From: Escherichia coli
Lineage (GTDB): Bacteria; Pseudomonadota; Gammaproteobacteria; Enterobacterales; Enterobacteriaceae
Length of the DNA stretch: 64,000 nucleotides
Assembly: GCF_030013205.1 (NCBI RefSeq)
Contig: NZ_CP122648.1
Reading direction: 5' to 3' (one strand)
Shown: in pieces, positions 20,961 to 23,900 of the stretch
How positions within the stretch are numbered: the stretch's first letter is position 1
Layout: every line of letters begins with the position of its first letter
Made by a program: the position numbers

Positions 20961-23900
20961 TAGTAGAGTAAGTAACTGGTTAATTTACATTCTGGTCGCG
21001 TGCGCAAATACGCTTTTCCTCACACAGTTGTCAAGTGTTACGTTTAGATAATTGCTATCCGGAAAAGCATCTGCTATTTATAGCGGCCTCATTTTTCCCC
21101 CGAACATGGGGATCGATAGTGCGTGTTAAGGAGAAGCAACATGCAAGAAGGGCAAAACCGTAAAACATCGTCCCTGAGTATTCTCGCCATCGCTGGGGTG
21201 GAACCATATCAGGAGAAGCCGGGCGAAGAGTATATGAATGAAGCCCAGCTGGCGCACTTCCGTCGTATTCTGGAAGCATGGCGTAATCAACTCAGGGATG
21301 AAGTCGATCGCACCGTTACACATATGCAGGATGAAGCAGCCAACTTCCCGGACCCGGTAGACCGTGCAGCCCAGGAAGAAGAGTTCAGCCTCGAACTGCG
21401 TAACCGCGATCGCGAGCGTAAGCTGATCAAAAAGATCGAGAAAACGCTGAAAAAAGTGGAAGACGAAGATTTCGGCTACTGCGAATCCTGCGGTGTTGAA
21501 ATTGGTATTCGCCGTCTGGAAGCGCGCCCGACAGCCGATCTGTGCATCGACTGCAAAACGCTGGCTGAAATTCGCGAAAAACAGATGGCTGGCTAATTAC
21601 AGCCGTTCCATCACGTTTACCACAGGCGGGAAATGCTCCCGCCTTATTTTTTGTTCAAAGAGATGACAGACACACACTATATTGGCCGCTTTGCCCCCTC
21701 TCCTTCCGGCGAGCTTCATTTTGGCTCTCTGATTGCCGCGCTTGGCAGCTATTTACAGGCTCGCGCTAGGCAAGGTCGCTGGCTGGTACGCATTGAAGAT
21801 ATCGACCCGCCTCGTGAAGTTCCCGGTGCCGCAGAGACTATCCTGCGCCAGCTGGAACATTACGGTCTGCACTGGGACGGCGACGTTCTCTGGCAATCGC
21901 AACGTCACCACGCCTATCGCGAAGCACTCGCCTGGTTACATGAGCAAGGATTAAGTTATTACTGCACCTGCACGCGTGCGCGTATTCAAAGCATTGGCGG
22001 TATTTACGACGGTCATTGCCGGGAATTACATCATGGACCAGACAACGCCGCAGTACGTATCCGCCAGCAGCATCCGGTCACCCAGTTTACTGACCTGCTG
22101 CGCGGCATTATTCACGCCGACGAAAAACTGGCACGGGAAGATTTTATTATTCATCGCCGTGATGGTTTGTTTGCCTATAACCTGGCGGTGGTGGTGGATG
22201 ATCACTTCCAGGGCGTGAGCGAAATTGTCCGCGGGGCAGATTTGATCGAACCGACAGTGCGGCAAATCTCGCTGTACCAGCTTTTTGGCTGGAAAGTGCC
22301 AGATTACATCCATTTACCGCTGGCGCTTAATCCACAAGGCGCTAAACTTTCCAAGCAGAATCATGCGCCTGCGTTGCCGAAAGGCGATCCACGCCCGGTG
22401 TTAATCGCGGCACTTCATTTTCTGGGTCAGCAGGTAGAAACACACTGGCAGGATTTCAGCGTCGAGCAAATCCTTCAGTCAGCCGTCAAAAACTGGCGGC
22501 TCACCGCCGTGCCTGAGTCGGCAATTGTAAATTCAACATTCTCAAATGCGTCATGCTGAGCTATGATTAGCCGCTATTTTTTTGTCCTGAATGATGTTTG
22601 ACACTACCGAGGTGTACTATTTTTACCCGAGTCGCTAATTTTTGCCGCAAGGTGCTAAGCCGCGAGGAAAGCGAGGCTGAACAGGCAGTCGCCCGTCCAC
22701 AGGTGACGGTGATCCCGCGTGAGCAGCATGCTATTTCCCGCAAAGATATCAGTGAAAATGCCCTGAAGGTAATGTACAGGCTCAATAAAGCGGGATACGA
22801 AGCCTGGCTGGTTGGCGGCGGCGTGCGCGACCTGTTACTTGGCAAAAAGCCGAAAGATTTTGACGTAACCACTAACGCCACGCCTGAGCAGGTGCGCAAA
22901 CTGTTCCGTAACTGCCGCCTGGTGGGTCGCCGTTTCCGTCTGGCTCATGTGATGTTTGGCCCGGAGATTATCGAAGTTGCGACCTTCCGTGGACACCACG
23001 AAGGTAACATCAGCGACCGCACGACCTCCCAACGCGGGCAAAACGGCATGTTGCTGCGCGACAACATTTTCGGCTCCATCGAAGAAGACGCCCAGCGCCG
23101 CGATTTCACTATCAACAGCCTGTATTACAGCGTGGCAGATTTTACCGTCCGTGATTACGTTGGCGGCATGAAGGATCTGAAAGACGGCGTTATCCGTCTG
23201 ATTGGTAACCCGGAAACGCGCTACCGTGAAGATCCGGTACGGATGCTGCGTGCGGTACGTTTTGCCGCCAAATTGGGTATGCGCATCAGCCCGGAAACCG
23301 CAGAACCGATCCCTCGCCTCGCTACCCTGCTGAACGATATCCCACCGGCACGCCTGTTTGAAGAATCGCTTAAACTGCTACAAGCGGGCTACGGTTACGA
23401 AACCTATAAGCTGCTGTGTGAATATCATCTGTTCCAGCCGCTGTTCCCGACCATTACCCGCTACTTCACGGAAAATGGCGACAGCCCGATGGAGCGGATC
23501 ATTGAACAGGTGCTGAAGAATACCGATACGCGTATCCATAACGATATGCGCGTGAACCCGGCGTTCCTGTTTGCCGCCATGTTCTGGTACCCACTGCTGG
23601 AGACGGCACAGAAGATCGCCCAGGAAAGCGGCCTGACCTATCACGAGGCTTTCGCGCTGGCGATGAACGACGTGCTGGACGAAGCCTGCCGTTCACTGGC
23701 GATCCCGAAACGTCTGACGACGTTAACCCGCGATATCTGGCAGTTGCAGTTGCGTATGTCCCGACGTCAGGGTAAACGCGCCTGGAAACTGCTGGAGCAT
23801 CCTAAGTTCCGTGCGGCTTATGACCTGTTGGCCTTGCGAGCTGAAGTTGAACGTAACGCTGAACTGCAGCGTCTTGTGAAATGGTGGGGGGAGTTCCAGG

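Follow-up and report, generated by a model that had tools for sequence, protein, structure and literature searches.

Translation of Escherichia coli pcnB very probably starts at AUU, a codon that is invariant in the Enterobacteriaceae

The stretch of DNA analysed here (the window) consists of 64,000 nucleotides (nt) of Escherichia coli contig NZ_CP122648.1 (assembly GCF_030013205.1) and carries pcnB, the gene for poly(A) polymerase I (PAP I). Translation of pcnB very probably starts at the AUU codon at 22619–22621, as the original prediction proposed, and on this the sequence, the pairing of its Shine–Dalgarno (SD) motif, the comparative analysis and the literature agree. The AUU start of pcnB is already known, and the case in the window is correct but ordinary. 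The mechanical open reading frame (ORF) in the pcnB frame runs from 22598 to 24016 on the plus strand; from its first codon it reads TTG, then ACA CTA CCG AGG TGT ACT, then the ATT in question, after which codons 2–12 are TTT ACC CGA GTC GCT AAT TTT TGC CGC AAG GTG. Direct reading of the bases bears out the statement that the conserved PcnB N-terminus has no in-frame ATG at the expected position, and there is none upstream of it either. The ORF does begin 21 nt upstream of ATT, as had been stated, but with TTG and not with the ATG that had been read there; the ‘M’ of its MTLPRCT translation appears because the ORF track renders any start codon as methionine.

The candidate starts were compared by pairing the 20 bases 5′ of each with the 3′ end of 16S rRNA. 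For ATT the SD/anti-SD duplex has an energy of −7.2 kcal/mol, with GAGGUG at 22609–22614 and a spacing of 4 nt. The ATG at codon 52 (22772) gives −3.9 kcal/mol at a spacing of 0 nt, and neither the TTG at 22598 (+0.4 kcal/mol) nor the GTG at codon 12 (22652; +0.5 kcal/mol) has any usable pairing. ATT is the sole candidate for the pcnB start with a real SD.

Conservation of the start was assessed in a species scan that took one genome per species and the closest 80 loci, all from Enterobacteriaceae and comprising about 74 distinct sequences. ATT is invariant (80/80), as are GAGGTG at −10 to −5 relative to it, always at the same spacing, and the amino acids encoded by codons 2–12. Positions −4 to −1, right beside the invariant ATT, are variable, and in the rest of pcnB the third positions of codons vary freely (median entropy about 0.96, as against the fixed ATT, which as an internal isoleucine codon would be free to change synonymously). 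Within E. coli itself the 66-nt pcnB start region is unchanged in 5416 of 5424 complete genomes. The sequence 5′ of −11 is variable, shows no codon periodicity and contains single-base insertions and deletions (in the Enterobacter group between the TTG and the SD), and because of these properties the region upstream of −11 is judged to be non-coding. Substitutions in codons 10–17, by comparison, are nearly all synonymous in the pcnB frame, so that translation must begin 5′ of codon 10. In 43 of the 80 species there is an in-frame upstream stop, which in some Enterobacteriaceae comes as near as −15 to ATT, and after this stop no ATG, GTG or TTG occurs before ATT; in species such as those of loci L047, L061 and L077 the span that remains holds no codon of the NUG or AUN type other than ATT. 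No canonical in-frame start explains the N-terminus, as the first canonical codon downstream is codon 12, inside the conserved peptide.

These comparisons make it scarcely credible that the in-frame TTG at 22598 is the true start and gives a protein of 472 amino acids. The positive duplex energy given above means that this codon has no SD, and a start-like codon is present at −21 in only 28 of the 80 species (TTG in 26, ATG in 2), while the 43 species just described have no canonical upstream start at all between the stop and ATT. The frame is open from the TTG, 472-amino-acid forms are found in NCBI records (Salmonella, Kosakonia, Cronobacter and others) and ‘UUG’ is named once in PMC3561954, but the single-base indels and the lack of codon periodicity fall precisely between TTG and ATT, RefSeq does not use the TTG and, by our mapping of the coordinates, a reported 5′ end of the mRNA would be just 4 nt away from it.

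More distant relatives were sampled at 10 loci, obtained from a representative search and exact-protein look-ups, which are too few for covariation statistics. All 10 have ATT or ATC at the homologous codon. The arrangement of GAGGTG, 4 nt and ATT is found in Aeromonas hydrophila, A. cavernicola, Tolumonas auensis and Oceanisphaera avium as well as in a metagenome contig (L093) and a reduced endosymbiont genome of 1.08 Mb; two further metagenome contigs, probably from Alteromonadales, have ATT, and Photobacterium and one further locus have ATC. The peptide that follows the start takes forms such as FSQIANFCRK, FSHIANLYRK, FNRVASFCRK and IKRVINLCKK, the changes (in Aeromonas, Tolumonas, Oceanisphaera, Photobacterium and two metagenome contigs) being V/I, F/L and R/K swaps together with synonymous substitutions, without frameshifts or stops. 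To judge from this pattern of substitution the peptide after the pcnB start is evolving as protein. The distant loci fit a passage of PMC3561954 in which Binns and Masters are credited with the statement that AUU is the probable start of PAP I homologues in many Proteobacteria. At two of the distant loci (L088, Photobacterium ganghwense, and L090, GCA_001640375) the homologous ATC has another ATT before it, and the deposited Photobacterium annotation starts instead at an ATG sharing bases with the SD (ATGAGGTG). The pcnB gene of A. hydrophila CP043324.1 (L083) is called as two ORFs of 316 and 150 amino acids, which suggests a frameshift or a sequencing error in that genome.

The same sequences bear on a start at the GTG of codon 12, which would give 454 amino acids and leave the block upstream as an untranslated regulatory leader. 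This GTG is invariant in the Enterobacteriaceae (80/80), it is the start chosen by ENA and Logan gene calls, and the block 5′ of it is unusually conserved at the nucleotide level. Outside the family, however, it is replaced by CTA, TTA, GTA, GTT or GTC in several relatives, and codons 2–11 change there in the manner of protein-coding sequence, with the frame intact throughout. Given also that no SD stands at a usable spacing and that the literature puts the start at AUU, we consider initiation at codon 12 extremely improbable.

A further in-frame codon, the ATG at codon 52, has been considered in a different role. A downstream ATG is discussed as ‘+1(b)’ in PMC2939334 and, because the ATG at 22772 is the first in frame, we infer that it is this codon and also the start proposed in 1989. 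It could serve a minor, N-terminally shortened isoform made from pS1, a sigma-S transcript that starts inside pcnB. According to PMC2939334, pS1 is active in vitro and, in special circumstances, also in vivo, and anti-PAP I western blots show two bands. Both observations would fit such an isoform, but the site is occupied by a leucine codon (CTC, CTG or CTT) in most genera, AAGG directly abuts the ATG with no spacer, and pS1 has been seen in vivo only in a background lacking guanosine tetraphosphate (ppGpp). We therefore think the isoform improbable, and it would in any case add to the AUU start and not replace it. Codon 29 (22703–22705) also differs between genera, with GTG in Escherichia and ATG in the majority of the others, while Atlantibacter and a single Siccibacter locus have ATT; the constructs in PDB begin at residue 28 or 29.

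Initiation at AUU offers an account of how PAP I is kept at a low level. The strong and correctly spaced SD (GAGGUG plus 4 nt) would place the 30S subunit on AUU, the initiator tRNA would read this codon with a third-position mismatch and initiation would be inefficient; because of the mismatch initiation would be a rare event, and the polymerase would stay scarce. Proofreading by initiation factor 3 (IF3) discriminates against AUU starts, as it does for infC, and by analogy may do so at pcnB. The expectation that the AUU start keeps poly(A) polymerase low matches the literature that is attributed to Binns and Masters (2002, Mol Microbiol, PMID 12068810): passages in PMC2939334, PMC3561954, PMC9764084 and PMC2830850, all citing that work, describe the AUU start as limiting PAP I synthesis, and passages in PMC2939334, PMC3561954 and bioRxiv 063800 credit it with having shown initiation at AUU experimentally. 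Hecht et al. list infC and pcnB, and no other gene, as confirmed cases of a non-canonical start in E. coli, and they measured AUU at 1–2% of AUG (both bioRxiv 063800). PMC5499595 shows that AUU mRNAs are poor competitors of AUG mRNAs, and the effect of IF3 concentration on the choice of mRNAs with non-AUG starts is treated there as well. PAP I is estimated at 30–50 molecules per cell and its overproduction is lethal (PMC3561954). The AUU start accounts for the scarcity of the enzyme, an excess of which is toxic.

Nothing in the sequence of the window speaks against the AUU start. The points that do weigh against it come from elsewhere: the literature searched contained no study by ribosome profiling or N-terminomics in which the pcnB start is named, the introduction of PMC3561954 has ‘UUG’ where its discussion has ‘AUU’, and the ‘poor ribosome binding site’ of the literature is ill-matched with a GAGGUG that is perfect and invariant. 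Even so we hold initiation at AUU to be very probable.

The gene in the window is the same as pcnB of E. coli K-12 (b0143, NP_414685.4), with the same ATT, SD and length of 465 amino acids. Relative to the K-12-derived PcnB of PDB and RefSeq it has I for V at residue 131 and E for D at residue 342, and relative to K-12 PcnB it has S for T in the C-terminal RRRSRR; there are no differences at the start site. The other confirmed chromosomal gene with an AUU start, infC (encoding IF3), resembles pcnB in that a conserved non-canonical AUU (AUC in some species) limits its translation, and the alternation of ATT and ATC in pcnB (Photobacterium and one other locus) parallels that in infC. Unlike infC, which is autoregulated by its own product, pcnB has no known loop of this kind, and the genes have neither sequence nor function in common. 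As described in PMC4447247, ebpA of Enterococcus faecalis also has a rare ATT start, which attenuates its expression and was mis-annotated by automated calling, but it is an unrelated gene in an unrelated organism and was mis-annotated to a downstream ATG 120 bp away.

The expectation that automated callers would mis-annotate the pcnB N-terminus held for a part of the public annotation but not for the NCBI Prokaryotic Genome Annotation Pipeline (PGAP), which has it right. In all five RefSeq records sampled (strain 7/2, two of MG1655 including NC_000913.3, an O157:H7 strain and isolate F1005) the coding sequence (CDS) begins on ATT; in MG1655, for instance, this is b0143 at 157729..159126 of NC_000913.3. 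The corresponding 465-amino-acid protein, beginning MFTRVANF, is the form seen in NCBI and belongs to a cluster of 6191 members. Three other forms are in circulation: 472 amino acids from TTG or ATG at −21 (some NCBI records, e.g. Salmonella, Kosakonia and Cronobacter), 454 amino acids beginning MLSREESE from the GTG of codon 12 (most of the ENA and Logan gene calls), and 447 amino acids beginning MVVEAS from an ATG near codon 19 (NCBI, JGI, ENA and Logan, in Enterobacter-like genomes). The ENA and Logan gene calls carry no source names and are likely to be ab initio. The commonest error is a truncated N-terminus and not the extension that had been anticipated, and large public collections (ENA, Logan and JGI) still hold shortened or lengthened PcnB N-termini.

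The start lies within a block of near-invariant nucleotides (−11 to +29; Table 1) in which synonymous sites are frozen as well, including the four consecutive four-fold codons ACC CGA GTC GCT. Codons 2–10 have the lowest synonymous diversity of any nine-codon stretch of pcnB (0.17 vs a median of 0.96), and a second zone of low variation covers codons 38–50 (about 22730–22768). The four codons, with the rare or non-preferred CGA among them, are retained even in an A+T-rich endosymbiont genome (L084). One conceivable reason is mRNA structure acting as a second translational control in the Enterobacteriaceae, with a hairpin between the SD and codons 2–4 and a 13-bp helix between codons 5–9 and 41–46. 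Both helices are predicted by RNAalifold and by single-sequence minimum free energy folding, they fall on the two stretches of pcnB in which synonymous sites vary least, and the few variants of the hairpin are changes from G-C to G-U. However, the hairpin amounts to only −4.7 kcal/mol (z = −0.6) and is missing in Aeromonas and Photobacterium, the leader is no more stable than shuffled sequences (z = −0.3, +0.5 and −1.7, the last for a 157-nt region), randomisation of synonymous codons yields duplexes that are as strong or stronger, four or five of the 13 pairs break without compensation where amino acids change (L093, Tolumonas and Oceanisphaera), and there is no covariation. Control by such a structure is thus unlikely, and RNA structure was rejected as an explanation of the synonymous freeze on the grounds of weak or non-significant stability, no excess over randomisation, no compensation and the lack of the hairpin in Aeromonas and Photobacterium.

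Other causes of the freeze were also tried. An out-of-frame upstream ORF (uORF) of 14 codons overlaps the pcnB start (Table 1), but it is not conserved 5′ of −12, other genera having indels and no ATG; dual coding was therefore rejected as the reason for the block. So was a property shared by the whole locus, the 5′ dip in synonymous diversity being slight in the neighbouring genes (gluQ, 1.03 vs 1.3; folK, 0.92 vs 1.26). In the highly expressed dksA the 5′ freeze is even stronger than in pcnB, and the effect is therefore gene-specific but not unique to pcnB. The block probably represents, in extreme form, the constraint that is known to act on translation-initiation regions. That it marks, together with codons 38–50, an undescribed and sequence-specific cis-regulatory element is doubtful; an element of this kind, if real, could bind a protein or small RNA, or could consist of a long-range RNA pairing specific to the family, and would tune initiation at the weak AUU beyond the effect of the codon itself.

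Such a uORF is known from PMC4965119, where Table 1 lists a pcnB uORF of 14 amino acids that lies 0 nt from the mRNA 5′ end and overlaps by 17 nt; this 5′-terminal-AUG uORF was translated in a reporter at 7.7% of the level of the main CDS. It most likely corresponds to the ATG at 22594 in the window, as no other ATG fits. Further upstream, a promoter-like TTCTCA-17 nt-TATGAT sits at the gluQ 3′ end and just beyond. In the window (22539–22590) the −10-like TATGAT precedes a G+C-rich segment, TAGCCGC, and a T run, and this element, as TATGAT, TATCAT or TATTAT with a G+C-rich segment and a T run after it, can also be recognised in Aeromonas, Tolumonas, Oceanisphaera and Photobacterium (upstream regions of L083, L085, L087 and L088). 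By its sequence this looks like a conserved pcnB promoter with a G+C-rich discriminator, and such a discriminator would fit the published effects of ppGpp and DksA.

The 501 bases around the pcnB start are 100% identical to E. coli strain 7/2 and have 98–99% identity in 5424 of 5426 complete E. coli genomes. The 465-amino-acid product from ATT scores 995 bits against the NCBIfam equivalog NF008634 (cut-off 702), its residues 1–464 aligning to positions 1–468 of the 469 in the profile and residue 1 falling on position 1. The Pfam set is complete, with the nucleotidyltransferase head PF01743 (E-value 3e-41), the RNA-binding region PF12627 (1.2e-20) and the arginine-rich C-terminus PF12626 (4.9e-40), and E. 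coli PAP I structures PDB 3AQK–3AQN match residues 28/29–442 of the protein in the window, with two differing positions in the alignment shown for 3AQM. On these matches the protein is predicted to carry out template-independent poly(A) addition. The gene order in the window is sfsA-dksA-gluQ-pcnB-folK, and dksA-gluQ-pcnB-folK recurs in the RefSeq annotation and at the Aeromonas, Oceanisphaera and Photobacterium loci. The ATG with which folK starts shares bases with the stop codon of pcnB (ATGA, 24013–24016), an arrangement that suggests translational coupling; of the 80 species, 38 begin folK with ATG and 31 with GTG. The start of gluQ varies with the annotation, from the ATG at 21633 in the ORF list and NC_000913.3 (927 nt, 308 amino acids) to the ATG at 21663 in PGAP records (897 nt, 298 amino acids); the gene ends at 22559.

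Table 1. Positions in the window of the features at and around the pcnB start
Feature	Position	Strand	Basis or remark
pcnB CDS, poly(A) polymerase I, 465 amino acids	22619..24016	+	NCBIfam NF008634, Pfam and PDB matches
ATT (AUU), very probable initiation codon of pcnB	22619..22621	+	Sequence, RefSeq, conservation, literature
Shine–Dalgarno GAGGTG, 4 nt 5′ of ATT	22609..22614	+	16S pairing; 80/80 loci
Conserved N-terminal peptide, codons 2–12	22622..22654	+	Amino-acid conservation
In-frame TTG, start of the mechanical ORF, very probably not the true start	22598..22600	+	No SD; TTG at −21 in 26/80 species
GTG codon 12, very probably a false start	22652..22654	+	No usable SD
ATG codon 52	22772..22774	+	First in-frame ATG; candidate start of a shortened isoform
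14-codon uORF, out of frame, overlapping the pcnB start	22594..22638	+	PMC4965119 Table 1, by our mapping
Promoter-like TTCTCA-17 nt-TATGAT	22539..22567	+	Consensus scan only
Near-invariant nucleotide block, −11 to +29	22608..22647	+	About 74 distinct Enterobacteriaceae sequences

Only two AUU starts are confirmed in E. coli, and the one in pcnB is an exception of textbook rank. Its value here is that of a positive control in which a known non-canonical start was recovered from sequence alone, and of a reminder of N-terminal mis-annotation. Enterobacterales, Aeromonadales, Photobacterium and two metagenome contigs, probably of Alteromonadales, all keep ATT or ATC behind an SD at fixed spacing, which gives modest support to the old suggestion that the AUU start of this gene is widespread in the Proteobacteria.

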